DNA of 64,000 nucleotides from Candidatus Omnitrophota bacterium (lineage in GTDB: Bacteria; Omnitrophota; Gorgyraeia; JABMRN01; RBG-13-46-9), in contig JBDRHE010000059.1 of the NCBI GenBank assembly GCA_043817155.1, positions 65,540 through 129,539 of the forward strand. The letters are read 5' to 3'. Made by a program: the position numbers and the translations under genes. Positions 9,322 through 28,215 of the stretch are shown piece by piece (positions within the stretch are counted from its first letter, which is position 1; the number at the start of each line of letters is the position of its first letter). Below the pieces are notes generated by a model that searched no databases, was not told the DNA's origin, and worked only from the letters and a program-made list of their open reading frames with translations.

Positions 9322-9382
9322 TTTAGGGATTCCCGTGGGGGATAGATATGTAACATCGTAAGTATTGTAATTCTCAGATGTT

Positions 9383-11188: not shown

Positions 11189-11224
11189 GATTGTGCTCGA
11201 ATCTATGCCACCGCTTAAAAACGC

Positions 11225-13074: not shown

Positions 13075-14292
13075 TTACATCATTAATTTACTATAGATCT
13101 CTTTATACTTCTCTACAGCGGCGTCTAAAGAAAATAGATCTTCCGCAATTTTGCGGCATCGCTTCTTAACAGCTTCCCTGTCCCCGATTAACGCCTTTAT
13201 TTTTTCATATGCCCGCTCATATTCCTCATGGGAGAATTCTTCAATCACGGCGCCAACATCATAATCCCTGATTATACGATCGCAGTCACCAATACCGGAA
13301 TTAATGACAACAGGTACCCCGCATGCCAGGCTTTCACCAAGTTTTATCGGCGAGCATCCGATCCCGGATAGCTTACGGTTATAAAATATCAATGAAAAAT
13401 TCGCGCGTGAAAAAGCTTCTGGCATATCTTTGTAATGGAGGGTATCCACACGGTAATCTGCCGCTCTTATGCCGAAAGAGAGCGCCTTTTTGCGAATTGC
13501 GTCCCTGGAATAGTTTGAAATGATCCAGAGAAAAGCTTCTTTTTTCCGTTCTTTCAAAAAACAGAAAAAATCAAGAATTCCGTTCAGGTTATAAAAACTT
13601 CCTAGATTCCCTGTATATAAAATTACCCATTTGTTCTCAATATCTCCGGCCATAGTCGTACCCTGCGTCTCTCCGGAAACGACGTCTGGTTTATCCGAAA
13701 ATACCTTCAAATCAACACCGCAGGGTATGACGGCAATATCGGATTTTACGTGAAAATGTCCGAGAATCGTTCTTTTTGCAGAGTCCGATAAAACAATTAT
13801 ATAATCCGCTTTTAAAAGAAGATAATTTTCCAATCTCTTGAATACAGAATAGAGGAGCCCTCCTTTTTCCCACGCTCCCGCGTCCACCTTTTCATCGGGC
13901 CAAAAGCCGCGCATATCAAATATGATCTTTATTTTAAGAAAGCGTTTCAGGATACACCCCATCAGCGCCGCTATATACCCTCTTGCATGAACTACGTCGA
14001 TCCCCTCTTTTTTAACAATATAAATTCCGGTAATAACACCCTGAAAAATATCGAAGAGAGTAGCCGGTACCGTAGGATGTTTATGATATCTTTTGCGTAC
14101 CCAGCTTATATGCTTATTCTCTAATGTTTTGCGGAGCTTACGATCCTTATCTCCGACGGGATCTCTCTCTTTTTCAAAACTAAGAAGCGTAATAAGGATC
14201 CCACTGCCTGAAAGCCGCTTAAGATACGGAACAATTTGCGATTCAGAAACGAAGTCCGATATTGCATCATAGGTAATATACAAGATTTTCAT
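13075..14292 (-). CDS. Glycosyltransferase family 4
   Basis: GVPVVINSGIGDCDRII C-terminal GT4 motif; 405 aa. Confidence 0.7.
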   Translation of the reverse strand: MKILYITYDAISDFVSESQIVPYLKRLSGSGILITLLSFEKERDPVGDKDRKLRKTLENKHISWVRKRYHKHPTVPATLFDIFQGVITGIYIVKKEGIDVVHARGYIAALMGCILKRFLKIKIIFDMRGFWPDEKVDAGAWEKGGLLYSVFKRLENYLLLKADYIIVLSDSAKRTILGHFHVKSDIAVIPCGVDLKVFSDKPDVVSGETQGTTMAGDIENKWVILYTGNLGSFYNLNGILDFFCFLKERKKEAFLWIISNYSRDAIRKKALSFGIRAADYRVDTLHYKDMPEAFSRANFSLIFYNRKLSGIGCSPIKLGESLACGVPVVINSGIGDCDRIIRDYDVGAVIEEFSHEEYERAYEKIKALIGDREAVKKRCRKIAEDLFSLDAAVEKYKEIYSKLMM

Positions 14293-15725
14293 TATTGGCG
14301 CAATAATTTATGAGTTTTTTCTTTACCAAGCATGATTACGCAAAATCCATAGCACGAATAAATAATTATAAATGGCATAAACATATCCCTGTGCCTAACC
14401 ACATTGCCGATAAGGCCTTCCGCCATGGCCTGGGGTATCATGAGTGTGGTTAAGACTAAGACTATCGCGGTAGAAATAAGGAAATCCCGACGCATGGAAA
14501 TCAAAATTCCTAAGAGCATAAATGGAAAGGTGAGGAACGTCAGGATTGCCTGGGGATAGAAAATCGCAAGCAAGGGGTGCCCGTATGGGATATCCCATAG
14601 AAATGGTGAATAAAGATAATAAGCCAAAGCTTTGAAGCATGAATAGGCAAGGCCAATGTCAAGGAAGTCATTCAAATCCATGCCTACGGAACCTTTCTCA
14701 TATACAGCTTCCTTATATATCCTAAAAGTTTCCGCTGAAGAAGAATTTTCAAACGAAATATGGTGATCGAACATAGCCGTTATTCCTTCCTTCAGAGAGC
14801 CGGCGATTGTCGGCAAACTGAACATAAGCCGATTTATTAAAACAGCATATAGCAATATTAATAATATTGATTTTGCTAAGTTTTTTCTATCCAGAAAATC
14901 CTTTAAACACTTTATCAGCAGCACAAGAATAAACCCTATCAGAAAGAGGATTGCTGCTTTTGTCTTTAATAAACTTAAAAAAAACAAAGAAATAATAGCG
15001 ATAAATAGTGAAGATTTTTTATTTTGTTTGAAATAGACCAGCACGAAGAGTATGTACACCAAAAATAAAAAATTAACTACCGTATCTTGCAGCAAAGTAA
15101 CAGACCAAAATATTATCGACGGAAAAAACATTACAATACCCGATGATACCTTTGCTGTTATTTCACTCTTGACCAATTTTCTTGCGATAAAGTAAACCAG
15201 TATCGCGCCTAAAGCGCCGAAAAGAGAGTTTAAAAGCTTCGCGGCTATGGGGGCGTAACCTATCCACGCATACAATACGCCTAGCAGGTTTACATAAATA
15301 CCGAATTGATATTCTCCGGGAAGCGGTATAACGCCTTTGTATATATCATATGACATCTTTAATTTGTCTGCCAGAAACGGATCCTTTATGAACTGGCTTA
15401 TAAAATTAGCTCCTTTTAGGACGCTTGCGATATAAAAGGCATTGCTGTTATAAATGATCGCGTCCGGCTGCGTATCAGCCGCCTGCCAGGCGCCTGTCAG
15501 GCCAAAATAATAATTTACTATCGCGAGTACTGCCCTTACTGCAAAGCCAAACACAAATAAGCGCGCCAGGAAATCGCCGGACCCTGTATGCGTATAGCGC
15601 TTTATACAATAAAAAGAGATTGAAAATAGCGCGCATATAAATAAGATGCCGGGAGAAAGGGTAAGCGCGATTCCCAATATCAACCCAAGCAGTAAGATAG
15701 CTATCTTCCTATTGTATCCGGTCAT
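14292..15725 (-). CDS. Polytopic membrane protein, putative GT-C-type glycosyltransferase or glycan polymerase
   Basis: More than 10 predicted TM helices and no soluble domains; located among glycosyltransferases. Confidence 0.4.
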   Translation of the reverse strand: MTGYNRKIAILLLGLILGIALTLSPGILFICALFSISFYCIKRYTHTGSGDFLARLFVFGFAVRAVLAIVNYYFGLTGAWQAADTQPDAIIYNSNAFYIASVLKGANFISQFIKDPFLADKLKMSYDIYKGVIPLPGEYQFGIYVNLLGVLYAWIGYAPIAAKLLNSLFGALGAILVYFIARKLVKSEITAKVSSGIVMFFPSIIFWSVTLLQDTVVNFLFLVYILFVLVYFKQNKKSSLFIAIISLFFLSLLKTKAAILFLIGFILVLLIKCLKDFLDRKNLAKSILLILLYAVLINRLMFSLPTIAGSLKEGITAMFDHHISFENSSSAETFRIYKEAVYEKGSVGMDLNDFLDIGLAYSCFKALAYYLYSPFLWDIPYGHPLLAIFYPQAILTFLTFPFMLLGILISMRRDFLISTAIVLVLTTLMIPQAMAEGLIGNVVRHRDMFMPFIIIYSCYGFCVIMLGKEKTHKLLRQ

Positions 15726-16312
15726 GTTGCGCTTCCCATTTTATCTCTGCTCAATTTGATCATATAAAAAATTTGATTGAACCCGAAAAGGAATCTATGG
15801 TAATCCTGTATCACAAAATCTTGCTTTACCAGATCTTCCATTTTCGGTAAATCGCAATAAAAGACATGATTAGTTTCAATTTCTTTGGCGTACATTTTCA
15901 TAAGACCTTCCGCGGTCTTTAATGGCGTGGTAATGATAAGTATCCCGTTAGGTTTCAAAACCCGCGCGATTTCCGAAATTAACTTTTGAGGCGAACCGAT
16001 ATGCTCTATAACCGCCAGAAGCGTGACATAATCAAAGTAATTATCAGAAAAATTCAATTTATCCTTGACCTCGTCCCCCCACAATCTGTCCAATCCAAAC
16101 CGTTCTTTACATTTTGAGCGTCTTAAGAAATAACCGTCTCCGCAGCCTATATCCAGATGCCTCCTGGCCGGTTTCATATATCTTTCCGCATTAATAGCGC
16201 GAAGCCAGCGCGTTAAAGGGATGATCAATGTACCAAGCAAACCTTTCGGTCTGGCATAAGAGAAAGACGGCACATTTGATTTCGCTGCTTCATCCCCGAC
16301 AATCCTCAACAT
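15722..16312 (-). CDS. Class I SAM-dependent methyltransferase
   Basis: Motif I HLDIGCGDGYF. Confidence 0.7.
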   Translation of the reverse strand: MLRIVGDEAAKSNVPSFSYARPKGLLGTLIIPLTRWLRAINAERYMKPARRHLDIGCGDGYFLRRSKCKERFGLDRLWGDEVKDKLNFSDNYFDYVTLLAVIEHIGSPQKLISEIARVLKPNGILIITTPLKTAEGLMKMYAKEIETNHVFYCDLPKMEDLVKQDFVIQDYHRFLFGFNQIFYMIKLSRDKMGSAT

Positions 16313-16313: not shown

Positions 16314-17963
16314 CTACTTTTTCACTCCATATGAGATGACAATTTTCTGCGGTTCATGCCCCCCTAAATTTGGTCTCCAGAAAAAAGTTGTCTTACGGGC
16401 AAACTCCTTAATAACATTTTGGTATTTAATTTCTACACCGTAATTACGGATTTTCTCTCTTGTCTTCCAGAAAGAGATCCTATCGGGATGACTAAAAACG
16501 GGAAAGATAACATAATAAGCATGGCTGGTGTTCAATTCTTCAACGAGATCGCCCTCCTCCTCCTCACTCAAGGAATATTGCCTCCCCTTTACAAAGCGTA
16601 TGTTATCGCCGGTATTGAATGCGTCTTTTGCGTCATTCAATAAGAAGGTTATGTCGTAGTCTTTAAATAATTCGTTATGGATAACCCATCCCGGATCACC
16701 GATGATAACGATCTTTTGGCGCTGATCCACATTATTTTTTACCCATGCGCTGGCGTTATAACGGACATCCCCATAGGCATAGATATTGTCACACGCCCAT
16801 GTATAGGCTAAGGATAGCAGCCATATTAAAAAGATCGAAACAAATGCGTACTTTTTGAAAATTCCTTTCAGTTTAAAAATACCATCGGCAATGCTTGAAC
16901 TCAATATAAGCAAAAACGGAACAATCAGAATTATGTATTTCATTTCGAAAGTCACTGGACTTAAACAAGCGAATGCGAAAGATGGGACTACCGTGAGCAT
17001 TATAAGTTTAACCGGAGAAGAATAATTTTTTTTAAACAAGCTAAAAACGATCCCACAGACAACTAACAGAAAAAGCGCCACCCCGAATATATCTTTCAAA
17101 AGCAGAATATATCCCACTATTCCTGATAGGCAAAGATGAACTATAGAATCCCGGGATTGCGGCAGATAGTATGCTTTATAGAATCCCATAGCATTCAGAT
17201 AGGAGGAAAAATTATAGATGGCTCCGGGAAATCCTATGAAGAAGCCGCCCAAAAACGAAGCCCCTGCAAGTGGAATGTACTTTAGATCTCTTTTTGACAC
17301 CTTTATCAGCAAATAGCAAAGTGGAAAGATGACGATGCCGCCGTTATATTTTGTAGCAAGCGCAAGGCCCCCCAAAATAAAAGGAACCACATATCTCTTA
17401 ACCGTATTCTTTTCAAAATAATGGATACACGAAAAAACTGTCGCGAGCACAACAGAGATAAGCAAACTTGTGCTTTTAGCCGTGTGGGCTTCTGAAACAA
17501 AGCCCATCGTAACGCTCAAAAACAATGCGGTAAAAATACCCGCTCTTTTGGAAAAAGAGATCTTCGCGATACGATATGCCATATAGACTGTTAACACAGC
17601 AAAGATTGCCGAAGATAGTCTCGCTGTTATGTAGACGAGCGTAGAAAACATGGGATCTGTATTGGAAAGATGTATCCATGATACCGAAGCAGCCTGCTTA
17701 ACGGCAAGAAGCGGATACCCGACAATCTTTAAAAAGGAAAGTAGCGGCAAGAAAAATATAATGAGCACAAAATAATGAAATGTCGGATGAAAAGGGTCCG
17801 ATTGTGGCACAACGCTCTTTTCTGCGATCATGCGCAGGGCTCCTGCAACCGGCTCATCCGTACACCACCTTGAAGGCAATCCCCAACCTATGCCGTATAT
17901 GCACAGAAAAAAAACGGTGAGCAAGGCAAGAACTAGCAAGAGACCCCTGGCATCTTTTTGCAT
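16314..17963 (-). CDS. GT-C fold glycosyltransferase (ArnT/PMT, GT39/GT83-like)
   Basis: Polytopic protein with N-terminal loop DEP motif (WCTDEPVAGALRM) characteristic of ArnT/PMT-type transferases that use polyprenyl-phosphate sugars. Confidence 0.55.
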   Translation of the reverse strand: MQKDARGLLLVLALLTVFFLCIYGIGWGLPSRWCTDEPVAGALRMIAEKSVVPQSDPFHPTFHYFVLIIFFLPLLSFLKIVGYPLLAVKQAASVSWIHLSNTDPMFSTLVYITARLSSAIFAVLTVYMAYRIAKISFSKRAGIFTALFLSVTMGFVSEAHTAKSTSLLISVVLATVFSCIHYFEKNTVKRYVVPFILGGLALATKYNGGIVIFPLCYLLIKVSKRDLKYIPLAGASFLGGFFIGFPGAIYNFSSYLNAMGFYKAYYLPQSRDSIVHLCLSGIVGYILLLKDIFGVALFLLVVCGIVFSLFKKNYSSPVKLIMLTVVPSFAFACLSPVTFEMKYIILIVPFLLILSSSIADGIFKLKGIFKKYAFVSIFLIWLLSLAYTWACDNIYAYGDVRYNASAWVKNNVDQRQKIVIIGDPGWVIHNELFKDYDITFLLNDAKDAFNTGDNIRFVKGRQYSLSEEEEGDLVEELNTSHAYYVIFPVFSHPDRISFWKTREKIRNYGVEIKYQNVIKEFARKTTFFWRPNLGGHEPQKIVISYGVKK

Positions 17964-17965
17964 AT

Positions 17966-19501
17966 CTACGCCTTCAAAAGCTTAAGTCCCGCCTTTGCCT
18001 TTCTTTTAAATTCTTCGAATGTCCGTATCTTTAACATTCTGCTCATAATATAGGAAGGGCGGGTATAGAATTCTTTATAGGCATAATGCAAAAGCTCCTG
18101 GAGCTCCTTTTCGGACAATATCCCTTCCCAGTATTTTGTTCTGAAATCCTTACGCGGAGACTTCGCAAAATCCCTCCAATAATCCTGTTTGAATATTCCG
18201 CTTTTCAGCGCGTCTTCATAGGCCTCGGTGCCGGGAAATGGCGTAAATATGGTTATGTGGACGTAATCGGGGTCAAGTTTTTTGGCAAAATCTATCGTTT
18301 TCAATATATCATCTCTGGTCTCCTCCGGGGCCCCGATCATGAAATAAGCGAAAGTTGAGATACCAATATCTTTTGTAGCCTTGAATATCTTTATAGCCCT
18401 GTCCAGGTCTATGTCTTTCTTAAGAACCTTCAATATCTTTTCGGTGCCGGCTTCCACGCCATAGTGTATTCTCTGGCAATTTGATTTTTTTAGCGCCATG
18501 AGCATCTCGCGGTCGACATTGCTGACCCTTGTCCTTATGTCCCACCCTATTTTTAAACGCCGCCTGGCTATCTCTTCGCATACTTCCATTACCCTATTCC
18601 TCTGCACGGTAAACGTATCGTCATAAATGAATATCTCTTTTATGCCCATATTCTGACATTCTTCCATCTCGTCTACCACTTTTCCGGGCGAGATAGCCCG
18701 AAAGACCTTTCCCATGCTTGGCCTATAACAGAACGTACACCGATAAGGACAACCCCTGCTTGTAAACATCGTTGTTATGGGGCTTCGCCGCGCCAAAAGA
18801 GACGTATACTTGCCGTACGGCACGAGGCGGCGTGCGGGAGACGGTAGCTTTTCAAGATCTCTTATAAAATCGGGATTGCCTGTATTGACAACATTTCCGT
18901 TCTCCTTAAAGACTACGCCCTTAACCTTTTTAAGATCTTCTATATTATGCATGTTTGACAGAAGCTCTGTAAATACAATTTCGCCCTCACCAAGTACGAC
19001 ATAATCTATCCCATGTAGATCGATCGTCTCTTCCGGAAAAATACACACGTGCGGTCCTCCAAGGACTACCTTGGTATTCTGATTGATACTTTTTACAATA
19101 TCTACCGTCTTTAAAACGTCGATCATCGTAAATGTAAGCGCCGTGATACCTACTACATCCGGACCATATTCTCTTATGCGCCTTTCGAGCTGCGGATACC
19201 CTATCTCTTCTACCGGAACGTCAATTACGTTTATCTCGTGGTCGGAATGTTTCTCCAGATATGCCGCAACATACAGTATGCCGAGCGGCGGGTTGAACCC
19301 TCTCTCTTCATCGATAATCGGAGGATTACAGCTCAATATCTCGTTCTCTACCGAAGGGTTTATAAATAGGACCTTCACGTCTATCTCGTTCTCCTGTCGA
19401 TAAGGTCTGCCAAAAGTCCGATAACCAGCGTTTGAATACCGGCCATTGCCAAAATCATCGTAGTGGTATCCAGTATTTTCGGCAAACAGAACATGCTCCA
19501 A
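17966..19501 (-). CDS. B12-binding domain radical SAM protein (class B radical SAM, putative methyltransferase)
   Basis: N-terminal cobalamin-binding Rossmann region (VLGEGE) followed by the CxxxCxxC cluster RGCPYRCTFC. Confidence 0.8.
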   Translation of the reverse strand: MEHVLFAENTGYHYDDFGNGRYSNAGYRTFGRPYRQENEIDVKVLFINPSVENEILSCNPPIIDEERGFNPPLGILYVAAYLEKHSDHEINVIDVPVEEIGYPQLERRIREYGPDVVGITALTFTMIDVLKTVDIVKSINQNTKVVLGGPHVCIFPEETIDLHGIDYVVLGEGEIVFTELLSNMHNIEDLKKVKGVVFKENGNVVNTGNPDFIRDLEKLPSPARRLVPYGKYTSLLARRSPITTMFTSRGCPYRCTFCYRPSMGKVFRAISPGKVVDEMEECQNMGIKEIFIYDDTFTVQRNRVMEVCEEIARRRLKIGWDIRTRVSNVDREMLMALKKSNCQRIHYGVEAGTEKILKVLKKDIDLDRAIKIFKATKDIGISTFAYFMIGAPEETRDDILKTIDFAKKLDPDYVHITIFTPFPGTEAYEDALKSGIFKQDYWRDFAKSPRKDFRTKYWEGILSEKELQELLHYAYKEFYTRPSYIMSRMLKIRTFEEFKRKAKAGLKLLKA

Positions 19502-20265
19502 AAAAACACTATTGCGCCTGCGGCAATGAAAACAAAACCTAAGGGCACAAAAATTTTGAGCGGATTAAAGAAGAGGATTGTTCTTACGATTAAGGAGAGC
19601 ATGCTTGCCGTATCTTTTATAGGATGAAATTTAGACAGCCTTCCCCTGTGATCGTAGTCTATAGGCACGTATTTTACCGGACGGCCGCTGGTCAGGAAGG
19701 CAAGCGTTACTGTTGTCGTAAAGGAAAAACCGGAAGGTAGAATATTTAGAATCGACCTCACCTGATCTTTCTTCATTAGTCTAAAACCGGAATTCAGATC
19801 AGGTATCTTCTTCCCGCTTAAATAATTCGCCAGAGTCCTCAGTATATACTTCGCGATCTTCCTCAATATCGGTATATGGATATCTTTACCTGTTCTCGCT
19901 GCTACAACCATATCGTATTCGCGTCTATATTTTAGAAGTTCGGGTATCTTATTATTCGGATACGTGCCGTCAGCATCGATAATGATCAGGGTGTCGTACC
20001 GGGACCGGGCTATACCCTTTTTAAGAGATGCTCCATACCCCTCATTGCATTCGCTGCGCATAAAAACGATATCTTCCTTGCCGCCGACGATCTGTGGTGT
20101 AGCATCACTGGAACCGTCGTCAATTACAATAACTTCGTAATCGGACTGTAGCGAATCCAACACGTCTCTTATTTCGTCGATCACTCTGCCTACGGTCTTT
20201 TCCTCGTTATAGGCCGGAATTATAATGCTAACCCCGGCATCGTCGATATTTTCCATGGCCCCCAT
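19381..20265 (-). CDS. GT2 polyprenyl-phosphate sugar synthase (Dpm1/GtrB/ArnC-like) with C-terminal TM helices
   Basis: SIIIPAYNEE ... VIVIDDGSSD GT2 motifs; two C-terminal TM segments as in GtrB/ArnC. Confidence 0.75.
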   Translation of the reverse strand: MGAMENIDDAGVSIIIPAYNEEKTVGRVIDEIRDVLDSLQSDYEVIVIDDGSSDATPQIVGGKEDIVFMRSECNEGYGASLKKGIARSRYDTLIIIDADGTYPNNKIPELLKYRREYDMVVAARTGKDIHIPILRKIAKYILRTLANYLSGKKIPDLNSGFRLMKKDQVRSILNILPSGFSFTTTVTLAFLTSGRPVKYVPIDYDHRGRLSKFHPIKDTASMLSLIVRTILFFNPLKIFVPLGFVFIAAGAIVFFWSMFCLPKILDTTTMILAMAGIQTLVIGLLADLIDRRTR

Positions 20266-20367
20266 TAAACCCTCCTTCTAGTAAACAGATCGTGTCGATC
20301 TTCTGTCTGTGTAATCTCCTCTGCCTTCATAAGTAAAATCTGTATGATCACGATGAGTCTCTTTGCG

Positions 20368-21762
20368 CTAAAACTGAAAATATATAAACTGACTCGACAA
20401 ACTTGACTTATTAAAGAAGAGCAAGAATATACCTGTCGAATATGCGAAATATCTGACATAATACGGCAGCGACATGAAAACCTTATATACAGCGACACGC
20501 GCCCTTAGAATATGGATCGCAAAACAGGCAAGAAGCAACGTCAATGCCCCGGGCGTAAGAAAGACCGTACCCGTCTTTAGCGTAAGTATCGAGCGCGCGA
20601 TAGCGTATCCTTGCGAAAAATTCTCGGCTCTAAAAAATATCCACGCCAGCGAAATGAGCTGGAATGTAACGAATATCTTAAGGAAATTCGCGATAGGATT
20701 TTCCGGAAGCTTTATTTTTTTCTCTGTCAATTTCTCCATCACGAGATAAAAGCCGTGCAGTAGGCCCCATATAACAAACGTCCACCTGGCGCCGTGCCAC
20801 AAGCCGCCCAGAAACATGGTTATCATTACATTTACATATGTCCTTTCGAGACCCATTCGGTTCCCGCCGAGTGGAATATAGAGATAATCCTTAAGCCAGC
20901 TTGAAAGTGATATGTGCCACCGTTTCCAGAAATCGGAAAAACCGGAAGCTATATATGGTAGATTAAAGTTTTCCGGGATATCGTAGCCCATGATCTTCAT
21001 GCATCCTATGGCGATGTCACTGTATGCCGAAAAATCGCAGTATATTTGAAAGCCGAACGCGTATGCCGCCAGAAGCAGTGTAAGCCAATTATATTCCGCG
21101 TGCTGTGCGAAAGCATGATTCACGAAGATCGCCAGATTATCCGCTATAACCATCTTTTTGATCAGCCCCCAAAATATGCGGTGGCTTCCCAATACTAGAT
21201 TGTCAAACCGCAATAGCCTGGTTTTGCTGAATTGCGGAATTACCTGTGTAGCGCGTATGATCGGACCCGCTATTAGCTGCGGAAAAAAAGATATAAAAAG
21301 AGCCGTATCGATAAAGCTTGCGTGCCGGGTCCGGCGCCTGTATACGTCAATAACATAAGACATCGCCTGAAAAGTGAAAAATGATATGCCTATTGGAAGA
21401 ACTATGTTGACGGGCGTAATTGGGCCAATGTTAATAAGCGAGTCCAAAGAATTTATGTTATCAATAACAAAATTCGTGTATTTGAAGGTGCCCAGAAGAA
21501 GTAAGTTCCCTGCTATCGCGAAGGAGACCAGCAGTTTTCGCTTGCGCGCGTTCTGGCTCCTTGCAATGATCCCGGCGATGAAGTAATTAAAGAGTATCGA
21601 CCCTACTATAAGCCACCCATAACTTGCGTTCCAGTGCGCATAGAAAAAGAGGCTGGCCGCTACTAGAAACACCTTTTTGTATGTGTTCTTCTCCTGCAGC
21701 AAAAAGACTATGGCCAACACAACCGGAAAGAAAACAGCGAATGCTACCGAATTAAAAAGCAT
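20368..21762 (-). CDS. MBOAT-family membrane-bound O-acyltransferase (AlgI/DltB-like)
   Basis: Polytopic protein with conserved MBOAT histidine region (GGLWHGARWTFVIWGLLHG) and YIPLGGNR. Confidence 0.8.
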   Translation of the reverse strand: MLFNSVAFAVFFPVVLAIVFLLQEKNTYKKVFLVAASLFFYAHWNASYGWLIVGSILFNYFIAGIIARSQNARKRKLLVSFAIAGNLLLLGTFKYTNFVIDNINSLDSLINIGPITPVNIVLPIGISFFTFQAMSYVIDVYRRRTRHASFIDTALFISFFPQLIAGPIIRATQVIPQFSKTRLLRFDNLVLGSHRIFWGLIKKMVIADNLAIFVNHAFAQHAEYNWLTLLLAAYAFGFQIYCDFSAYSDIAIGCMKIMGYDIPENFNLPYIASGFSDFWKRWHISLSSWLKDYLYIPLGGNRMGLERTYVNVMITMFLGGLWHGARWTFVIWGLLHGFYLVMEKLTEKKIKLPENPIANFLKIFVTFQLISLAWIFFRAENFSQGYAIARSILTLKTGTVFLTPGALTLLLACFAIHILRARVAVYKVFMSLPYYVRYFAYSTGIFLLFFNKSSLSSQFIYFQF

Positions 21763-22650
21763 CTAAAGTCCTTTTTCCTTAATAAATTCCAGTATCTTGG
21801 CGGACATCCTTTCTCCGCCTGTGGGAGAGAGATGAAAATAGTCTGTAAAATCACTTTTTTCGACTTCCTCATTCATAAGATCGATGTACGGTATATCGTA
21901 TCTCTCTAGTATTTCAAGAATCGCATCGTACGCAGCCTTGACATATTTCAGATAAACCCTGCCACCCGCTGAATTCTGAATAAAAGCGTTGGGCGTTATT
22001 ACATAGATTACGTTTTTAAACTTATTTTCGTATATGCTCTTGCAGAACGGTTCTTCGCGTGATTTAAGTAATAGGAGATAGCCTTCAAGCATTTTGTCTG
22101 ATTTCATGGAAGTAAAATTTATATTCTCATCTATGTGCATGTAGAAAGCGAGATTATGGTATAGAAAATCATCTAACTTTGCGCCAAAAAACCTCTTCAG
22201 CACCCTTGCCTCCCTCTTAAGCGTATTATGTATATCAGGATATACGAGAAGTTCGTATAGGACTATATTATTGTTAGAAAATACTATCTCTTTATTCTCA
22301 TTAGGAAACCTGTCGATCCATTCAAGGTCAGGCCTATCTTTCACTATCTTCTCTAATTGCCTTCTTATCGAACGCAAAGCCGAACTCTCTACGGTCATGA
22401 TCTCTCTTGTCCCTTTTGGAGCTTCCTGCGTATAAACAAGCTTGTACGGCTTGAACATATTATCCTTATAATACTGTGGCAGATCTTCGCTTATCTCCTC
22501 CTCTGTCCTAAGCTTAAACTGATGATAAAGGAGCCATTCCGGGTTGCGATAGAGATACGCAAGCCTTACCCGAAGCCCTATCTCGCATGTAAAGACCAGG
22601 ATAAGAGACAGTACAAGCGCTCGTTTAATTATTTCCTTTTTCATACGCAA
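21763..22650 (-). CDS. AlgJ/AlgX/DltD-like partner protein of the MBOAT O-acyltransferase (SGNH-like)
   Basis: N-terminal signal anchor; DYFH(L)S motif resembling the AlgJ DTHW block; immediately downstream of the MBOAT. Confidence 0.4.
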   Translation of the reverse strand: MRMKKEIIKRALVLSLILVFTCEIGLRVRLAYLYRNPEWLLYHQFKLRTEEEISEDLPQYYKDNMFKPYKLVYTQEAPKGTREIMTVESSALRSIRRQLEKIVKDRPDLEWIDRFPNENKEIVFSNNNIVLYELLVYPDIHNTLKREARVLKRFFGAKLDDFLYHNLAFYMHIDENINFTSMKSDKMLEGYLLLLKSREEPFCKSIYENKFKNVIYVITPNAFIQNSAGGRVYLKYVKAAYDAILEILERYDIPYIDLMNEEVEKSDFTDYFHLSPTGGERMSAKILEFIKEKGL

Positions 22651-24154
22651 TGATATCTATATTCCTAAATGACTTTCTTTCAATTGGCCGATACCCTTCC
22701 CTACTAATCCAATCGACAATGGCCTGATTGGCTCCGAATACTTCAGCATTCCCGTAAACGCGGTAAAACCAAATCCTCCTGAAAGGTGATACTTTTCGCT
22801 TCAGTTGTTTCCAAACGTCGTTTGATGCGGCAACGTATTCGGTGCGGTTGTCATTTAGCTTAAAATATTTTCTTACTTCTACAAAGTTCGATACTTCATT
22901 AATTTCCGGAGCGGGATCAAAGGAAAGCAGACACTCGTCTTTGTCAATTGCCTGTGTCTGCAAAAATCTTACCGCAGATGCCGTCCCGAATTCTACGGAA
23001 ACGGCATGTGGAATTCTCATGGCGAAAACAATCAGCACGAACACTAAAAGCGTATTTCCTGCAAAGCGGTTTTTGGTCATTATCGTATGTATAAAAAAAG
23101 CTATCAATATTAGAAAGAGCGCGTGCAGCGCTGCGAGATATCGCGGAATTGGCGACAGTCCGATAAACGACGCCGAAAGCCATGAAATAAGAAGAGGCGC
23201 AACTGAAACAAAAGGTAAGAACCATACAAGATCCGCCTTCTGCGGAAAACGGGCCTTCAGTTTTGCCATTGTAAACAGAGAAAACAGACCGAAACTCACA
23301 AAGACCACAAGCGCAAGCATGCCCAGTACGCGCTTTGAAAAGTGGCCGGTTATCCCTCCGTGAAAGGTCATGAAATAGGGGTCAAAACCTGCAAGCGCCG
23401 CCATGTTACGCGCATAGATCCCAATTCGCAGCGCGCCCACATTAAACCCCTTATCCGCCCAATTGTAAGTGAAGCTCGAAGCATTGTCAAACTGACTAAC
23501 TGCATGAGGCAGCCATATGCAAAAAATGAGAGATGCGACGCAGATAGCTGACAACCATCTCAGTAGAAATCTCGGCTTCGTTCGTTTGAAGATAATAATA
23601 AAGAGCGTCTGCGCAAATAGGAGCGGCATTGCAAAGTAGAATGTAAGCATAGCGAGTACGGCCGAAAGCGCATAGCCAATCCAATATGGGAGATTCTCGC
23701 TACCCTTAATAATTTTAAGCATGAAAAACGTAGACAAGAGCATCCAGAATGCGGAATCTCCATAACTGCGCACATATTGAGAGGCAAATATAAGAAGCGG
23801 AGAGAACGTCGCCAATAATAGAGCTACCCTTGCTACTCCTTCGTTGAAGCACTCTTTCCCGATAAGATATATCAGCATACATACGCCGAGGCCGAACATA
23901 ACAAAATAGAGACGTATCCACCATATCGATTGGCTTAAACTCATCCAACCGGAAAGTAAAAAATACGTTAACGGCGGATATACGCTTCTGGCTTTAAGCA
24001 CGGAAACGATATTATTTAAACCCGACCCGGCAATAAGCATTGTCACTGTCTCATCGCCCGAATATTCCCTGGTCAGGTCGATAACTCTGAAAGAGAGACC
24101 GACGCCTAATAATATCAACACAACAAATAAAGGGTGACGGGTCAGTGCTTTCAA
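22625..24154 (-). CDS. GT-C fold membrane glycosyltransferase (GT39/ArnT-like)
   Basis: Polytopic protein; N-terminal loop GDE motif (EYSGDETVTM). Confidence 0.5.
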   Translation of the reverse strand: MKALTRHPLFVVLILLGVGLSFRVIDLTREYSGDETVTMLIAGSGLNNIVSVLKARSVYPPLTYFLLSGWMSLSQSIWWIRLYFVMFGLGVCMLIYLIGKECFNEGVARVALLLATFSPLLIFASQYVRSYGDSAFWMLLSTFFMLKIIKGSENLPYWIGYALSAVLAMLTFYFAMPLLFAQTLFIIIFKRTKPRFLLRWLSAICVASLIFCIWLPHAVSQFDNASSFTYNWADKGFNVGALRIGIYARNMAALAGFDPYFMTFHGGITGHFSKRVLGMLALVVFVSFGLFSLFTMAKLKARFPQKADLVWFLPFVSVAPLLISWLSASFIGLSPIPRYLAALHALFLILIAFFIHTIMTKNRFAGNTLLVFVLIVFAMRIPHAVSVEFGTASAVRFLQTQAIDKDECLLSFDPAPEINEVSNFVEVRKYFKLNDNRTEYVAASNDVWKQLKRKVSPFRRIWFYRVYGNAEVFGANQAIVDWISREGYRPIERKSFRNIDIIAYEKGNN

Positions 24155-24900
24155 GCTTTGCTCCTTGCGCTTTTACACTCTCTGGCTATCAGGCGCACAT
24201 ATGTGCCGACAGTCTTCCATTTATTCATCTTACTCTTTCCTTTTCTAAAGTCGCAGCGAAGAATCATCGGTACTTCGTCTATCCTTAAGCCCAATTTACT
24301 GAATTTGATGAGCATCTCTACCATACATACGAACCCGTTCTCCTCTATGAGGGAGCTCCCGTAAGCCCCAAAGGCCTTCCGTAAACTGGCCGTCCTATAG
24401 GCTCTGTAAAAAGAGCTATAAGTGTTGATCCCTTTGATCGGAAAGAGCAGTTTAAGCATTCCATTAGCAACGCTGCTTAAAAAAATACGGTCGATAGTCG
24501 TACCTACGATCTTTCCTTCGGGCGCATAGCAGGACGCTAGCACCACATCTGTGTGTGAATCGATCTTGTCCAGCATAGCATCCAGTATATCCAGATCGCT
24601 TGTATTGTCGGCTTCTTTTGTTACGATAATATCGTTATCCCCGGCTATCTCCAATGCGCGAGAAAAACCTGTTCTGAATGCCTGACCAACGCCTCTGTTC
24701 GTTTCATGGCTGATTACTTCCAGCGGGATCCTGTCTCTCGCGCTTAAGGCTTTCTCCTCCGTAGAATCCATGCTCCCATCGTTTATTAAGAGTATGCGAT
24801 AGTCCCCCCGATTCAATTCTTTCATCTTGCGACCAATATTATCCAAAAGCGCATCAATATTTTCCGCTTCATTGTACGCCGGAATAACAAACATTATCAT
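24151..24900 (-). CDS. GT2 glycosyltransferase, Dpm1-like polyprenyl-phosphate sugar synthase
   Basis: FVIPAYNE...LLINDGSMDST motifs; translationally coupled to the GT-C gene at 22625-24154. Confidence 0.7.
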   Translation of the reverse strand: MIMFVIPAYNEAENIDALLDNIGRKMKELNRGDYRILLINDGSMDSTEEKALSARDRIPLEVISHETNRGVGQAFRTGFSRALEIAGDNDIIVTKEADNTSDLDILDAMLDKIDSHTDVVLASCYAPEGKIVGTTIDRIFLSSVANGMLKLLFPIKGINTYSSFYRAYRTASLRKAFGAYGSSLIEENGFVCMVEMLIKFSKLGLRIDEVPMILRCDFRKGKSKMNKWKTVGTYVRLIARECKSARSKA

Positions 24901-25625
24901 GGTAACCCTTCACCTTCTTTCTGCTTCTCGTCATGCTTAATCGCGTATATCAGATATCGCCAGCAGAAGAGTCTTTGCATGTTAACTCTCCTAAGAACCG
25001 CATTGAGCCAATTGTCGAACGTTATGACCATCTTTTTAATAAAGCCGGCATTCGGTACTAGCTCTATCCCAACGTATCCACCACTTAACGGAAGGGCAAT
25101 AATATCGCGCCAGCTGTATTTTATAACTTTAAATCCGTTCTTCTCCAGCGCATCAACAACGTCATCCAGTTGCGCCTCCGGATCCTGATGCCTTATAATT
25201 TTTCGCGCCAATCTCACTATAAAATTCGGGTTTGGGTCAAATATAATAAGCTCTTTGGCGCATACCTCTTTTATCTTTTTCAATGCCGAGCTCATGCTCT
25301 CTTCGGTATCAAAATGATGAATTGTCTCTCTTAAAAGCACCGTATCAAAATGATCTTTCGGAAAATCCATATCGTGGACCGATACCTGCCCTACATTTAT
25401 GCCATATAGATCTTTCGCTATTTTAACCGCCTCGGGATCGGAGTCTATACCGGTTACCTGCGCATCGCGCCTGTTCTCTTTAATTTGCTTCATAAGGTTT
25501 CCGTAGCCGCATCCGATATCCAGGATCCTCCTGCCTGTTATTAGGCCTATAATGTCTCTATTTTGGACCCTGGCGACATCACCGTAGAATCTGTTCAGCC
25601 GGGCTTCTTTATTTGTAATATTCAT
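24897..25625 (-). CDS. Class I SAM-dependent methyltransferase
   Basis: Motif I ILDIGCGYGNL. Confidence 0.7.
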   Translation of the reverse strand: MNITNKEARLNRFYGDVARVQNRDIIGLITGRRILDIGCGYGNLMKQIKENRRDAQVTGIDSDPEAVKIAKDLYGINVGQVSVHDMDFPKDHFDTVLLRETIHHFDTEESMSSALKKIKEVCAKELIIFDPNPNFIVRLARKIIRHQDPEAQLDDVVDALEKNGFKVIKYSWRDIIALPLSGGYVGIELVPNAGFIKKMVITFDNWLNAVLRRVNMQRLFCWRYLIYAIKHDEKQKEGEGLP

Positions 25626-26608
25626 GGCTTACCGACTCTTTCCTGCAGATTCCCTTTACTGCGTTTAATTGTATTTGCAAATGTCTTTAACGTTACAAAA
25701 CTGTATCTCTTTTCTATTTTCCCCAAAATCCTGTGAAAAAGTCTTCTTTTCGTATCCAACGCTACACTCAACCCTGGTTGTTTAACGAAAATCTTATCGC
25801 GGACGGAATCTAACATGTCTGCGGGATGGAAGTTATAATTTAAATTCAGATCCCTTTTCCCTGTCATCCAAAATCCGAAATCGAAGAGTCTCGCCCCAAA
25901 TATGAAGAGAAACGTACTGTTGAACGGAAGATTAAAAAAAGGTATAACGCTGATCGGAATCTCAAGAATATCCCTCCCGTATCCCGCACGCCAAAACTTG
26001 CCTCTTTTCGGAAAATACGCCTTAAGGGGTGGTAACAGTGTTGGCAAAAATTCTGATGCTAAACCCTTCAAGGCATCGCGTTTTAAGATATGCCCGGATC
26101 TGATATAGCTGAACTTACGTAATGCGGGGTACGCGAAAAACTTATAAACCGAAGAATCATATAGATAACCGGCCCTATCGAGGATATCGATGGTAACTTC
26201 ATCTATATCGTATCCGGGAACCCTGAACCCCGAAGGTCTTTGCCCGCACGCCTCTTCTATTATTCTCGTAGATTCAAATATATCCTTCTCCTTCTCTTTT
26301 CTCGGCAGTAGCGAAAATCCGAACGCATGATTCAGACTGTGATTTGCGATCTCATGTCCTTCATCAATTACCCTCTGAAGCATAGTTTGCTTAGACGGAC
26401 TCGAACAATCGCTTGCTACTACAAAGAATGTGGCCTTGACACCATGTTCGCTAAAAAGTCGGAGGAATCTCGGCAAGACTTTCTCGTAGATAGGGTCGTT
26501 TGCGCGATAAGCGATAGATGGGCTTTGGCCATGAAATCTCAAGATAGAGTCCAGCGAGTCGACATCAACCGAAATGGTACAGTAGGGCTTTGATGATAAT
26601 GCGCTCAT
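25622..26608 (-). CDS. Polysaccharide deacetylase (CE4/NodB-like)
   Basis: ISVDVD ... ATFFVV ... HEIANHSLNH motifs of NodB homology domain. Confidence 0.6.
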   Translation of the reverse strand: MSALSSKPYCTISVDVDSLDSILRFHGQSPSIAYRANDPIYEKVLPRFLRLFSEHGVKATFFVVASDCSSPSKQTMLQRVIDEGHEIANHSLNHAFGFSLLPRKEKEKDIFESTRIIEEACGQRPSGFRVPGYDIDEVTIDILDRAGYLYDSSVYKFFAYPALRKFSYIRSGHILKRDALKGLASEFLPTLLPPLKAYFPKRGKFWRAGYGRDILEIPISVIPFFNLPFNSTFLFIFGARLFDFGFWMTGKRDLNLNYNFHPADMLDSVRDKIFVKQPGLSVALDTKRRLFHRILGKIEKRYSFVTLKTFANTIKRSKGNLQERVGKP

Positions 26609-27237
26609 ATGTCGGTCTTCTTCCTATCCTTCACTTCGAAATAATCTCCTATATCATCTATAAATTCTATGCCAAGCTTATCAAGCATTCTTAAAGATTT
26701 AATATTTTTCTTACATACGGCAGAAAAGGGGGTAAAACCCAAATTCCTGATCAAGGCCAGCTCTTTTTCTAACGCAGCCGTTCCGATACCTTTGCCCTGC
26801 CAATCCTGGGCAACAAATATCGCATATGACCCTTTTTTGGGAAAGAATAGTCTGATCAAAGCGTACCCGATTAAATCGCCGTTACAGAAGATTCCCAACG
26901 GGATATGTGAAGTCCTTTGAAAAATATCCGCTACTGATTTCATGTCGGTTTTATGCGGCATTGAAAAGATCGAAAGATCCACTTTAACCGAACGTTCGAA
27001 AAAAGTGTAGACATCTTTTATCGCCTCACGTGTCAATGTCTTCACTGTAAAACGCTCTCCTTTACAAGAAAAGTTATCCGAATAGTCTGCAATCGATACT
27101 TTTGGCTTGAAGAGCGAAAAATAACATTTAATGAATAGCTCATTGATCATAAGCATACATTTAAAGAGAATGCCCTGATTTGTCTGTAATCGCAACAGTA
27201 AATTGAAAATCTTTTTTTTCACGGTTAAGAATTTCAT
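26605..27237 (-). CDS. GNAT-family N-acetyltransferase
   Basis: Acetyl-CoA binding motif A QDWQGKGIGTAAL. Confidence 0.6.
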   Translation of the reverse strand: MKFLTVKKKIFNLLLRLQTNQGILFKCMLMINELFIKCYFSLFKPKVSIADYSDNFSCKGERFTVKTLTREAIKDVYTFFERSVKVDLSIFSMPHKTDMKSVADIFQRTSHIPLGIFCNGDLIGYALIRLFFPKKGSYAIFVAQDWQGKGIGTAALEKELALIRNLGFTPFSAVCKKNIKSLRMLDKLGIEFIDDIGDYFEVKDRKKTDI

Positions 27238-28214
27238 TCCGATTTTAACAATCTCTTCCTGTGATCAATAGTTCTTTTTATACCTTCCGTTAAGTCCACC
27301 ATTGCCTGGTATCCTAGTATCCGTTTAGATTTTTCCAGATCCGGCACACGCCTCATTACATCCCTGTATGTCCCGAATATGCGCTTATGCGGTGTACGTT
27401 TCAATTTTAGTCTGTTCTTAGTATTCGCGATTTTATGTATCAAATGCGCCGTATCGATTACGCTCAATTCTTCGTCGTTTCCGATATTGAAAATTTCACC
27501 GATCGCGCGTGGGTTTTCCAAAGCCAGAACTGTTCCTCTGACCAGATCATCCACGTATGCCATAGAACGGGTCTGCTTTCCGTCTCCGTGAATAACGACC
27601 TGCCTATTATTGAGGACAGCATCAATAAAAAGCGGCACATGTCCTCCGCTCCAGGTAAAGCTGGCCCGCGGGCTGAATCCACCGAAGTAGCGAATAACGA
27701 CTACCGGAACTTTGTGCTCTTTATAATAGGCAAATGCCAGCTGTTCGCCGTAAATTTTAGACACAGCATATGTCCACCTTTTTGCTGTCGGAGGCCCGAT
27801 AACCAGGCTTCCGTCTTCACTGAACGGTAATTCGCCTGATGTTCCGTAGACATCGGAAGTAGACGCAAAGATGACCTTTGCGCGTTTTTTTCTGGCCGCC
27901 TCGAAAATATTACGCGTTCCTTCAACGTTGACACGTAAAGTTCTGAACGCATCCCCTTTTTCATCGATCTTTTTGGAAGCCGCAAGGTGGATAATGATAT
28001 CGACACCTCTGGCGATCTGCTTTACTGCCTCAAGATCCAATATGTCAGCCTTTACAAACGTAAATCGCCTGTTTTTAAGATTATGTCGTATATTGACGAG
28101 TTTGCCGATCTTTAGATTATCTATGCCGACTACCCTATAGTTCCTTTTCAGAAGTTCATCCAAAAGATGCGAACCAATCAGCCCTGAGACACCGGTTATG
28201 AGGACTCTCTTCAT
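27234..28214 (-). CDS. NAD-dependent sugar epimerase/dehydratase (extended SDR)
   Basis: VLITGVSGLIGSHL Rossmann motif; YAVSKIYGE YxxxK. Confidence 0.7.
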   Translation of the reverse strand: MKRVLITGVSGLIGSHLLDELLKRNYRVVGIDNLKIGKLVNIRHNLKNRRFTFVKADILDLEAVKQIARGVDIIIHLAASKKIDEKGDAFRTLRVNVEGTRNIFEAARKKRAKVIFASTSDVYGTSGELPFSEDGSLVIGPPTAKRWTYAVSKIYGEQLAFAYYKEHKVPVVVIRYFGGFSPRASFTWSGGHVPLFIDAVLNNRQVVIHGDGKQTRSMAYVDDLVRGTVLALENPRAIGEIFNIGNDEELSVIDTAHLIHKIANTKNRLKLKRTPHKRIFGTYRDVMRRVPDLEKSKRILGYQAMVDLTEGIKRTIDHRKRLLKSE

Positions 28215-28215
28215 A

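Follow-up and report, generated by a model that had tools for sequence, protein, structure and literature searches.

Probable extracytoplasmic glycosylation by two lipid-carrier sugar synthases and three GT-C transferases encoded in a large Omnitrophota surface-glycan operon

Does a group of glycosyltransferase genes from an uncultured Omnitrophota bacterium, set in a very large operon for surface glycan, serve glycosylation outside the cytoplasm? The window, meaning the whole 64-kb stretch of DNA that was analysed, had been read in the original prediction as encoding two Dpm1/GtrB-like GT2 synthases, each paired with a GT-C membrane transferase. All the ORFs named there are present on the minus strand at the positions it gave, and its interpretation as a whole is partly supported. 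The analysis favours, with reasonable confidence, an extracytoplasmic glycosylation module in which two GT2 enzymes probably charge a membrane lipid carrier with single sugars and three membrane transferases, not two, probably pass the lipid-linked sugars on to an extracytoplasmic target. For this module the analysis shows enzyme classes, folds, motifs and a conserved order of genes. The genes are tightly packed (junctions range from −4 to +2 nt), and their ribosome-binding sites are strong.

GT2a (19381–20265, minus strand, 294 aa) is a membrane-anchored candidate polyprenyl-phosphate sugar synthase of the GtrB/ArnC/AglJ type, containing a DAD motif and a Glycos_transf_2 domain (PF00535, E 3.9e-28 in the Pfam search). 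A hydropathy scan located two C-terminal hydrophobic helices (about residues 229–255 and 264–290), confirming the predicted membrane anchor; the alignment to the solved GtrB structure (5eke, 5e-15) runs through the catalytic domain and these membrane helices, and ArnC and then DPMS follow among the solved structures. The best curated NCBIfam match is AglJ (1.6e-35), followed by Dol-P-hexose transferase (1.5e-24), PgfS (6e-21) and ArnC (1.4e-19). GT2b (24151–24900, minus strand, 249 aa; PF00535, E 1.4e-18 in Pfam) is a soluble candidate synthase of the DPMS/PpgS type, with no membrane helix in the hydropathy scan and E-A-D replacing the DXD motif. Its best solved match, the Pyrococcus Dol-P-Man synthase (5mlz, E 1.4e-15), covers residues 3–242 and thus the full length; ArnC comes next, and the NCBIfam matches include PpgS (1.9e-10), AglJ and ArnC. 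A partial N-terminal match to PgaC tops the NCBIfam list of GT2b and is the sole exception to the lead of polyprenyl-phosphate glycosyltransferases among the NCBIfam and solved-structure matches of both enzymes. As a control, another GT2 of the same operon (32791–33849) matched EpsE, TuaG and WcaA, which elongate lipid-linked oligosaccharides. Both GT2a and GT2b group with polyprenyl-phosphate sugar synthases rather than with processive synthases, and their Dpm1/GtrB-like assignment holds. The missing anchor and the E-A-D motif of GT2b count against the best explanation.

GT-C1 (16314–17963, minus strand, 549 aa) and GT-C2 (22625–24154, minus strand, 509 aa) are PMT_2-family GT-C membrane glycosyltransferases, scoring 59.1 and 43.3 bits (E 5.8e-11), respectively, where the Pfam cut-off is 26.1 bits. 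The DEP loop motif predicted for GT-C1 was found as WGLPSRWCTD36-E37-P38; across 15 homologues D36 never varies and E37 hardly does. GT-C2 likewise keeps an acidic motif after the first membrane helix (D34-E35, both invariant in 22 homologues), and the two Asp-Glu motifs superpose when the families are aligned by hhalign (probability 97.2%, E 3e-11). GT-C1 also bears a C-terminal mixed α/β domain of about 150 aa. A third paralogue, GT-C3 (14292–15725, minus strand), had been missed in the original prediction; its 477 aa comprise the membrane domain only, with an invariant D88. The GT-C fold is seen in predicted models of GT-C1 and GT-C3, and the structural matches of the GT-C models include ArnT near the top, Pmt4 and Pmt2 among the best, ALG12, ALG9 and ALG3 as strong matches, and also AftA, AftB and PimE. 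None of the three GT-Cs matched a curated NCBIfam family and neither the GT-C1 nor the GT-C2 family matched a solved structure at the sequence level, so donor and acceptor specificity is unreadable from homology.

In Pfam the GT-Cs match PMT_2 and PMT and no other family. Together with the structural matches to Pmt4 and Pmt2 and the PgfS match of GT2a, a likeness to streptococcal PgfS/PgfM1, this is consistent with O-glycosylation of proteins in the manner of PMT/Ppm1 or streptococcal GtrB/PgtC2-Pgf, in which Und-P-sugars would be used to modify Ser/Thr-rich regions of secreted or surface proteins. Streptococci offer a precedent: a single GT-A synthase and GT-C enzymes glycosylate Ser/Thr-rich regions (10.1101/2024.05.05.592596). 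A target protein near the module, which the original prediction had proposed to search for, was not found, there being no candidate acceptor among the genes of the 64-kb window, and we consider a protein target unlikely.

In 12 related loci, drawn from different metagenomes and MAGs, GT2b is the next gene upstream of GT-C2, and the order deacetylase, methyltransferase, GT2b, GT-C2 is shared by the window with three related loci, making four arrangements. At the junction (gcTTGAaa) the TTG start of GT-C2, with an AAGGAG ribosome-binding site 6 nt ahead of it, overlaps the TGA stop of GT2b. The 4-nt overlap behind the proposed translational coupling is thus present, but it is not special to this pair, as six junctions in a row between 24154 and 27237 show an identical −4 overlap. 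The conserved adjacency better fits a donor synthase and its user than a scheme, modelled on haloarchaeal N-glycosylation, in which at least one GT-C acts as an oligosaccharyltransferase, ligase or polymerase on a lipid-linked oligosaccharide instead of using monosaccharides, and GT2a is an AglJ-like initiator on a monophosphate carrier. The large C-terminal domain that STT3, AglB and PglB possess is also missing from the GT-Cs, and the STT3 model appears only as a trace (0.0039); we regard such a role as highly improbable. An initiating transferase may be encoded beyond the window, which is less than half of the 137-kb contig.

The claim that each GT2 is paired with a GT-C stands for GT2b and GT-C2, but there are three GT-Cs for two synthases. 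All three GT-Cs cluster in three related loci, and a DPMS-like GT2 lies within 10 kb of a GT-C1 homologue in 11 of 14 distinct loci. Four loci contain GT-C1 and GT-C3 with GT2b only, which makes 'each paired' too neat; GT2a is an optional member of the module, and one-to-one pairing is therefore only half right. One polyprenyl-P-sugar synthase feeds several GT-Cs in other systems, namely RgtE with RgtA-D, Ppm1 with PimE/Mpt, and PpgS with Rv3779. The locus resembles these Rhizobium and mycobacterial systems in that one or two DPMS-like synthases serve several GT-C paralogues; GT2b, moreover, has no TM segment, as is the case for PpgS, which it matches, and for the Ppm1 catalytic domain, and AftA, AftB and PimE are among the structural matches of the GT-C models. 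For the proposed three-component system of the GtrA-B-V type, no third component was found in the window: its 64 kb encode no GtrA-type or ArnE/F-type small flippase, which counts against the module favoured here. The module is like Gtr O-antigen glucosylation (GtrA/GtrB/GtrC) in the alignment of GT2a to GtrB over both catalytic domain and C-terminal helices, and like Gtr and streptococcal GtrB/PgtC2 in that an Und-P-sugar would be made first and used outside the cytoplasm. It differs in having no GtrA and in GT-Cs of the PMT_2 family, not the GtrC or YfhO families.

Directly upstream of GT2b, Pfam identified a SAM methyltransferase (24897–25625) and a Polysacc_deac_1 deacetylase (25622–26608), both on the minus strand and both candidates for tailoring the donor sugar or the lipid-linked sugar. 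The deacetylase, which adjoins GT2b in three related loci, best matches TIGR03006, the XrtA-system deacetylase (7e-20), and has no ArnD match among NCBIfam hits at E ≤ 1e-5. Further upstream (26605–29271, minus strand; Pfam), a GNAT acetyltransferase, an SDR 4,6-dehydratase/decarboxylase-like enzyme and a non-hydrolysing UDP-GlcNAc 2-epimerase (WecB, 316 bits against a cut-off of 210) probably supply the donor sugar. The best matches of the SDR are LegB, UDP-xylose synthase and, as a partial likeness, the ArnA C-terminal domain (1.9e-34). Epimerase_2 and then SDR genes stand upstream of GT2b in six related loci.

The Arn (ArnC/ArnD/ArnT), Bordetella Lgm (LgmA/LgmC/LgmB) and Francisella Flm/NaxD (FlmF2/NaxD/FlmK) pathways combine a GT2 that makes an Und-P-sugar with a PF01522 deacylase and a GT-C whose acidic motif is periplasmic. 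The Francisella flmF2/flmK genes are described in PMC2233673. The window holds the same set, and could accordingly be read as modifying lipid A phosphates or the LPS core: GT2b would make Und-P-HexNAc, the deacetylase would, like ArnD and NaxD, de-N-acylate the carrier-linked sugar, and the GT-Cs would add a cationic amino sugar. The deacetylase adjoins or is near GT2b in the window and six related loci, a Formyl_trans_N gene occupies the GT2b position in another, and the partial likeness of the SDR to ArnA and the presence of ArnT among the top structural matches point the same way. ArnC too is among the best solved matches. However, no ArnT or ArnD model is among the NCBIfam matches and no ArnT, ArnD or ArnC model reaches its cut-off; the deacetylase is nearest to an XrtA-system enzyme, and the window contains neither lipid A genes nor an ArnE/F-type flippase. 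Three GT-Cs, moreover, exceed the needs of known lipid A amino-sugar systems, though Rhizobium Rgt has four GT-Cs, and the module sits among GT4-GT4-AsnB-Wzx polysaccharide genes, with which it is syntenic. We consider a role in lipid A modification unlikely.

Those polysaccharide genes comprise two GT4 glycosyltransferases (12020–13060 and 13075–14292) and an AsnB-type amidotransferase (10121–12013) with one in-frame TGA in place of a conserved Gly, all of them conserved downstream partners of the GT-C genes, on the minus strand and assigned by Pfam. In NCBIfam they come closest to PEP-CTERM/XrtA-system glycosyltransferases and amidotransferase, in each case under the cut-off, and the block is syntenic in four related loci. 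A Wzx/Rft1-type flippase gene (47235–48815) belongs to the same operon. Between GT-C3 and GT-C1 lies a SAM-dependent methyltransferase (15722–16312, minus strand; Methyltransf_23, E 2.8e-15), and between GT-C1 and GT2a a B12-binding radical SAM enzyme (17966–19378, minus strand; Radical_SAM 3.8e-29, B12-binding 3.8e-27), a candidate sugar-tailoring enzyme that is syntenic in five related loci. Its best NCBIfam match is HpnJ (2.5e-69, under cut-off). The likely start is the GTG at 19378, 2 nt past the GT2a stop; the longest ORF (17966–19501) runs into GT2a only when it is read from an earlier TTG.

The predicted MBOAT/AlgJ-like O-acetylation pair was borne out for its first member, an MBOAT-family membrane O-acyltransferase of the DltB/AlgI/PatA-like kind (20368–21762, minus strand; PF03062, E 1e-30), which is DltB-like in NCBIfam (E 1.6e-52, under the curated cut-off). 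The second, given previously as 21763–22650, likely starts at ATG 22644 (21763–22644, minus strand, 293 aa), in agreement with the NCBI annotation. This orphan protein has no Pfam or NCBIfam match at normal thresholds. A set of 5.8 billion proteins contains just 12 clusters of it; all lack a precomputed Pfam domain, and the sole one with a name is labelled hypothetical. It matches AlgJ, AlgX, DltD, PatB or any SGNH family at best E 0.04–0.06, below significance; 'AlgJ-like' accordingly reduces to position, a single-pass N-terminal membrane anchor and sub-threshold C-terminal traces of Lipase_GDSL_2 (0.04) and DltD (0.064). Its invariant residues (S87/S88, G154, N211/N219 and D268-x-x-H271) follow the SGNH order, making it a candidate SGNH-like acyl-transfer partner, and it lies directly upstream of the MBOAT gene in two related loci. 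In AlgI/AlgJ/AlgX, PatA/PatB, DltB/DltD and WssH/WssI, the MBOAT gene is likewise directly preceded by that of a single-pass anchored extracytoplasmic protein, but the partner here is without their family matches and, unlike the Dlt system, the window has no DltA/DltC-type ligase or carrier protein.

Assembly in two compartments is known from Haloferax Agl (AglJ/AglD GT2, AglS/AglB GT-C, Wzx-like AglR, AglP methyltransferase) and eukaryotic ALG (Dpm1/Alg5 with lumenal GT-Cs). There, as proposed here, GT-B and GT2 steps are cytoplasmic and GT-C steps use polyprenyl-P-monosaccharides; AglJ as the best curated match of GT2a, the ALG structural matches and the Wzx/Rft1-type gene extend the likeness. 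Unlike these systems, the locus has every score under the family cut-offs and no STT3/AglB-type oligosaccharyltransferase in the window. In a bacterial host the carrier would presumably be undecaprenyl phosphate, not dolichyl phosphate.

What follows on sugar identity, flipping, acceptor and order of steps is inferred. Both GT2s would act on the cytoplasmic face, each charging undecaprenyl phosphate with one sugar taken from a nucleotide sugar. GT2a would be held there by its two helices, as GtrB and ArnC are; GT2b, soluble like DPM1/PpgS, may rely on its partner GT-C2 for membrane attachment. As donor GT2b probably uses an N-acetylhexosamine derivative, which the adjacent WecB and SDR enzymes would make and the deacetylase, GNAT enzyme and methyltransferase would tailor. 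Some flippase would then turn the lipid-linked sugars over for use by GT-C2, GT-C1 and GT-C3, each with its invariant acidic residue predicted to lie in the first outward-facing loop. The most likely acceptor would be the glycan made by the GT4, GT2 and Wzx genes of the same operon, and the MBOAT and its anchored partner probably acylate the same product. This explanation is, overall, a probable one. The kind of system is already familiar; its arrangement here is uncharacterised yet conserved.

The two candidate polyprenyl-phosphate sugar synthases, GT2a (19381–20265) and GT2b (24151–24900), both contain a Glycos_transf_2 domain (PF00535, E 3.9e-28 and 1.4e-18, respectively); all the ORFs cited in the original prediction are present in the window. 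The GT-A domain of GT2a carries a DXD-type motif (IIIDADG). In GT2b, KEAD is aligned to the DAD of the Pyrococcus DPMS structure 5mlz, giving E-A-D, with a Glu in place of the first Asp, versus D-A-D of DPMS. The top NCBIfam matches of GT2a are AglJ (1.6e-35), a haloarchaeal dolichyl-phosphate hexose transferase, PgfS, and ArnC, and its top solved structures are GtrB (5eke), three ArnC entries, and the Pyrococcus Dol-P-Man synthase. GT2b best matches 5mlz among solved structures (residues 3–242, E 1.4e-15), with ArnC and GtrB next; its NCBIfam matches are PpgS, AglJ, ArnC, and a Dol-P-hexose transferase, together with a partial match to PgaC that covers the N-terminal part of PgaC alone, the shared GT-A core. 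Both sequences lack QxxRW as well as any membrane domain at the N-terminus. Another GT2 from the same operon (32791–33849), taken as an internal control, matches the cytoplasmic elongating enzymes EpsE, TuaG, and WcaA in NCBIfam instead, and the subclass assignment is therefore discriminating. GT2a and GT2b thus cluster with polyprenyl-phosphate sugar synthases rather than with processive synthases, the outcome on which the original prediction mainly depended. GT2b was ruled out as a processive synthase, despite the partial PgaC match, by its full-length alignment to DPMS and the lack of a membrane domain and QxxRW. Since all scores fall below the equivalog cut-offs, the two proteins are relatives and not orthologues of the named enzymes; their broad class is that of polyprenyl-phosphate GT2 synthases, a candidate activity assigned from sequence.

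The two synthases have different relations to the membrane. The proposed C-terminal anchor of GT2a was borne out as two hydrophobic helices that align to the membrane helices of solved GtrB. GT2b has no membrane helix and ends in a basic C-terminal tail only, resembling in this respect DPM1, PpgS, and the Ppm1 catalytic domain, each of which requires a partner in the membrane. The conserved adjacency of their genes suggests that GT2b may be anchored through the GT-C membrane transferase GT-C2 (22625–24154).

The window encodes three GT-C transferases on the minus strand. GT-C1 (16314–17963) and GT-C2, the two that were predicted, match PMT_2 (PF13231) with 59.1 and 43.3 bits against a gathering cut-off of 26.1; the predicted number did not hold, as a third, GT-C3 (14292–15725, 477 aa), adjoins the GT-C1 region. 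GT-C3 on its own gives a sub-threshold match to PMT (20.4 bits vs 22.7). An exhaustive HMMER search collected 1064 representative sequences related to it, and PMT_2 is matched by 32 of 41 aligned family members (best 3e-14). Profile-profile comparison links the GT-C3 family to the GT-C1 family (hhalign, 96.4%, E 1.3e-9), and likewise the GT-C2 family to the GT-C1 family (probability 97.2%, E 3e-11, 410 columns). Predicted models of GT-C1 and GT-C3 display the GT-C membrane fold. The DEP motif reported for GT-C1 is real: WGLPxRWxxD is invariant in 15 homologues and the next Glu (E37) is conserved in at least 90%. The invariant D36 of the GT-C1 family and E37 are aligned with D34 and E35 of GT-C2, both invariant, and GT-C3 has an invariant D88 after its third hydrophobic segment. 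A conserved acidic residue is therefore retained in all the three proteins, and loss of the periplasmic-loop D/E motif, which would have spoken against the prediction, was not seen. By the positive-inside rule only, these residues are predicted to face outward. No ArnT model appears among the NCBIfam matches of GT-C1, GT-C2, or GT-C3 at E ≤ 0.01, nor do they match solved ArnT at the sequence level, the likeness being structural only. The three are best described as putative transferases that belong to the PMT_2 class but to no named orthologue group.

Pairing of synthases with GT-Cs was examined in 26 related loci (L001–L026), onto which the window proteins were mapped by tblastn. A GT2b homologue lies directly upstream of a GT-C2 homologue in 12 loci (L004, L005, L006, L010, L013, L018, L020, L021, L023, L024, L025, and L026), that is, in all metagenome loci with enough upstream DNA, with the exceptions of L001/L007, where a Formyl_trans_N gene occupies the GT2b position, and L012, where GT2b is three genes away from GT-C2. 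The order deacetylase-methyltransferase-GT2b-GT-C2 is shared by the window, L010, L021, and L025; WecB followed by SDR is found upstream in six loci. The three GT-C genes are contiguous in L010, L012, and L013. GT2a belongs to a sub-module of an orphan protein, an MBOAT protein, a B12-radical-SAM enzyme, GT2a, and a methyltransferase, which separates GT-C2 from GT-C1 in the window, L001, and L003. L005, L006, L010, and L021 lack this sub-module, and their GT-C1-like genes directly follow GT-C2. The comparative gene order identifies GT2b/GT-C2 as a robust pair and makes GT2a an accessory synthase, but does not establish that GT2a serves GT-C1 one-to-one. The proposal that each synthase is paired with a GT-C is thus upheld for GT2b and GT-C2 but not for GT2a and GT-C1. 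Several GT-Cs served by one synthase have precedents in Rhizobium RgtE, which feeds RgtA–D, and in mycobacterial Ppm1. The overlap at the GT2b/GT-C2 junction was also seen, with a TTG start overlapping a TGA stop (gcTTGAaa) and AAGGAG 6 nt upstream. The identical 4-nt overlap occurs at six junctions in a row, between 24154 and 27237, and is therefore a sign of the operon, not of a specific pair.

The proposed O-acetylation pair stands in one of its two members. The MBOAT protein (20368–21762) is unambiguous (PF03062 E 1e-30, 107.6 bits vs a cut-off of 27) and is DltB-like (1.6e-52). Its neighbor (21763–22644), previously termed AlgJ-like, has a likely ATG start at 22644, which gives 293 aa as in the NCBI model, and an N-terminal anchor. 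No significant family or PDB match was obtained for this orphan protein in Pfam, NCBIfam, or a profile search of the PDB, which returned noise and GDSL traces only, and none of the 12 clusters in its family has a precomputed Pfam domain. Its invariant residues S87/S88, G154, N211/N219, and D268-x-x-H271 follow the order of SGNH blocks, and the C-terminus gives trace matches to Lipase_GDSL_2 (0.04), DltD (0.064), and two SGNH/GDSL PDB chains. These features suggest that the orphan is better named a candidate SGNH-like partner of the MBOAT protein.

A working scheme can be proposed for the module. GT2a and GT2b would act at the cytoplasmic side of the membrane, loading single sugars on undecaprenyl phosphate; the sugar of GT2b would probably be a HexNAc derivative produced by WecB and SDR and tailored by the GNAT protein (the three encoded at 26605–29271), the deacetylase (25622–26608), and the methyltransferase (24897–25625). 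After flipping, GT-C2, GT-C1, and GT-C3 would pass the sugars to an acceptor on the outer face, and the MBOAT pair would then acylate the product. This logic is like that of ArnC/D/T, Gtr, Ppm1/PMT, Rgt, Agl, and ALG. The third component expected of a Gtr/Arn-type system, a small flippase, was not found in the window: no GtrA-family or ArnE/F (SMR)-type protein is present among the scanned ORFs (Pfam), and no unassigned ORF of 50–200 aa has three or more membrane helices, except one antisense artefact. The sole flippase-like gene is of the Wzx type (47235–48815).

The most likely acceptor is the operon's own glycan, because the GT-C genes are conserved beside GT4-GT4-AsnB-(transglutaminase-like)-Wzx genes. 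The position of the deacetylase next to GT2b makes lipid A modification of the Arn/Lgm/Flm type a serious rival (PMC2233673). The deacetylase (PF01522 E 3.6e-20) recurrently adjoins GT2b and has neither signal peptide nor membrane helix, compatible with a role at the cytoplasmic face; its best curated match is an XrtA-system polysaccharide deacetylase, and ArnD is absent from its NCBIfam matches at E ≤ 1e-5. Protein O-glycosylation of the PMT/Pgf type, another serious rival, would place the sugars on a protein, and ORF scans of the 64-kb window returned no plausible protein acceptor. Genes for an initiating phosphoglycosyltransferase (Bac_transf or MraY/WecA type), for Wzy/WaaL, or for an STT3-type enzyme are likewise absent from the scanned ORFs and may be encoded on the remainder of the 137-kb contig. 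A bolder and rather improbable reading would make the module a bacterial counterpart of ALG/lipomannan logic: a glycan begun in the cytoplasm by GT4/GT2 enzymes would be flipped by Wzx and extended in three successive periplasmic GT-C steps, using Und-P-monosaccharide donors tailored on the carrier by de-N-acetylation, SAM-dependent methylation, and, through the B12-radical-SAM enzyme encoded between GT2a and GT-C1 (17966), C-methylation or rearrangement. We know of no description of radical-SAM chemistry on a polyprenyl-phosphate sugar.

The roughly 56 genes of the window lie close together in what is essentially a single array on the minus strand, with a steady negative GC skew, and nearly all of them are glycan-related in Pfam/NCBIfam scans of the ORFs; the inventory contains GT4 and GT2 transferases, one Wzx-type flippase, and six SAM methyltransferases. 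A promoter/terminator scan of 14–30 kb gave a number of sites not above that in shuffled sequence, so no separate transcription units are claimed, and the same scan of the 102-nt gap upstream of GT2a was empty. Rfam and tRNA scans revealed no RNA genes in the window. The two largest non-coding gaps, 8260–9382 (about 1.1 kb) and 59398–60402 (about 1.0 kb), the rest of the operon being gap-free, contain no Rfam family or tRNA; a gene for a small winged-helix (MarR/TrmB-like) regulator is located near each (7705–8259 and 58867–59397), and the gaps may be regulatory or promoter regions.

Several other genes in the array were characterized. The AsnB-type amidotransferase (10121–12013, minus strand; best curated match an XrtA/PEP-CTERM-system amidotransferase, 6.5e-89) is one gene interrupted at codon 263 by one in-frame TGA, where GGA has changed to TGA, replacing the invariant Gly of DVPLGAFLSGGIDSS in relatives. 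Recoding of UGA to Gly was rejected: TGA is the commonest genuine stop in the window, ending 24 of the 56 genes, and a nonsense mutation or assembly error is thus more likely. The module also has conserved membrane-anchored proteins that weakly match the transglutaminase core. One (9383–10093, minus strand) comes after AsnB in the window as well as in L001 and L003, another of 420 aa (L004 11523–12785) that is not in the window lies between GT-C2 and the orphan in L001/L003/L004, and L006 has a 309-aa Transglut_core protein after GT-C2. L004 (ERR7850083) also carries, between SDR and deacetylase-GT2b-GT-C2 (2257–8294), genes for a radical-SAM enzyme, an 80-aa PP-binding carrier protein, a cyclase, an HMGL-like enzyme, and an AMP-binding ligase. 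By analogy with Dlt, these genes hint that in some lineages an acyl or aminoacyl group activated on a carrier protein may be attached by the module.

A full phosphonate branch is encoded on the minus strand (33853–35316 and 37388–47207), comprising a PEP mutase (above the NCBIfam cut-off) in fusion with a nucleotidyltransferase domain, a split phosphonopyruvate decarboxylase, an AEP aminotransferase, a second nucleotidyltransferase, and a CDP-alcohol phosphatidyltransferase-like membrane protein. Two B12-radical-SAM enzymes, 43056–44648 and 33853–35316, best match the Sden_1168 P-methyltransferase family (1.5e-116 and 5.9e-91, both sub-cut-off), and the region hints at a glycan that may be decorated with methylated phosphonate or phosphinate. 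In total there are seven B12-binding radical-SAM genes (17966, 29268, 33853, 38212, 41551, 43056, and 51710) and one SPASM radical-SAM gene (56706); together with the six SAM methyltransferases, they give a density of methylation/rearrangement enzymes that is unusually high for a glycan cluster. Two nonulosonic-acid synthase genes (3758–5410 and 57960–58841, minus strand) are present, the former a NeuD-type acetyltransferase fused to NeuB (497 bits vs a cut-off of 400), and the aminotransferases, cytidylyltransferases, and 2-epimerases tied to them are located at both window ends. Beside the Wzx gene, a 624-aa protein (48820–50694, minus strand) matches the BFO_1060-family glycosyltransferase domain (4.4e-9) and, weakly, CDP-glycerol glycerophosphotransferase, and is a candidate transferase for nonulosonic acid or a phospho-substituent.

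Decoration of lipid A, O-antigens, cell-wall polymers, and proteins on the extracytoplasmic side is carried out in cells by a polyprenyl-phosphate sugar synthase paired with a GT-C. No new mechanism is revealed here, and the logic itself is familiar; as far as a literature search showed, the conserved module is undescribed, with nothing specific to it found in the literature on Omnitrophota glycosyltransferases. The phosphonate branch and the P-methyltransferase-like radical-SAM enzymes arguably make the surrounding operon more unusual than the module. A third GT-C family, comprising over 1000 representative clusters, is added by the analysis; Pfam largely misses its member in the window. It also defines, in Omnitrophota and neighboring uncultured lineages, a conserved and uncharacterised version of these systems, in which GT2b and GT-C2 are accompanied by two more GT-C paralogues and by deacetylase, methyltransferase, and radical-SAM tailoring genes, providing candidates for the biochemistry by which very small bacteria that depend on a host heavily modify their surface glycans.
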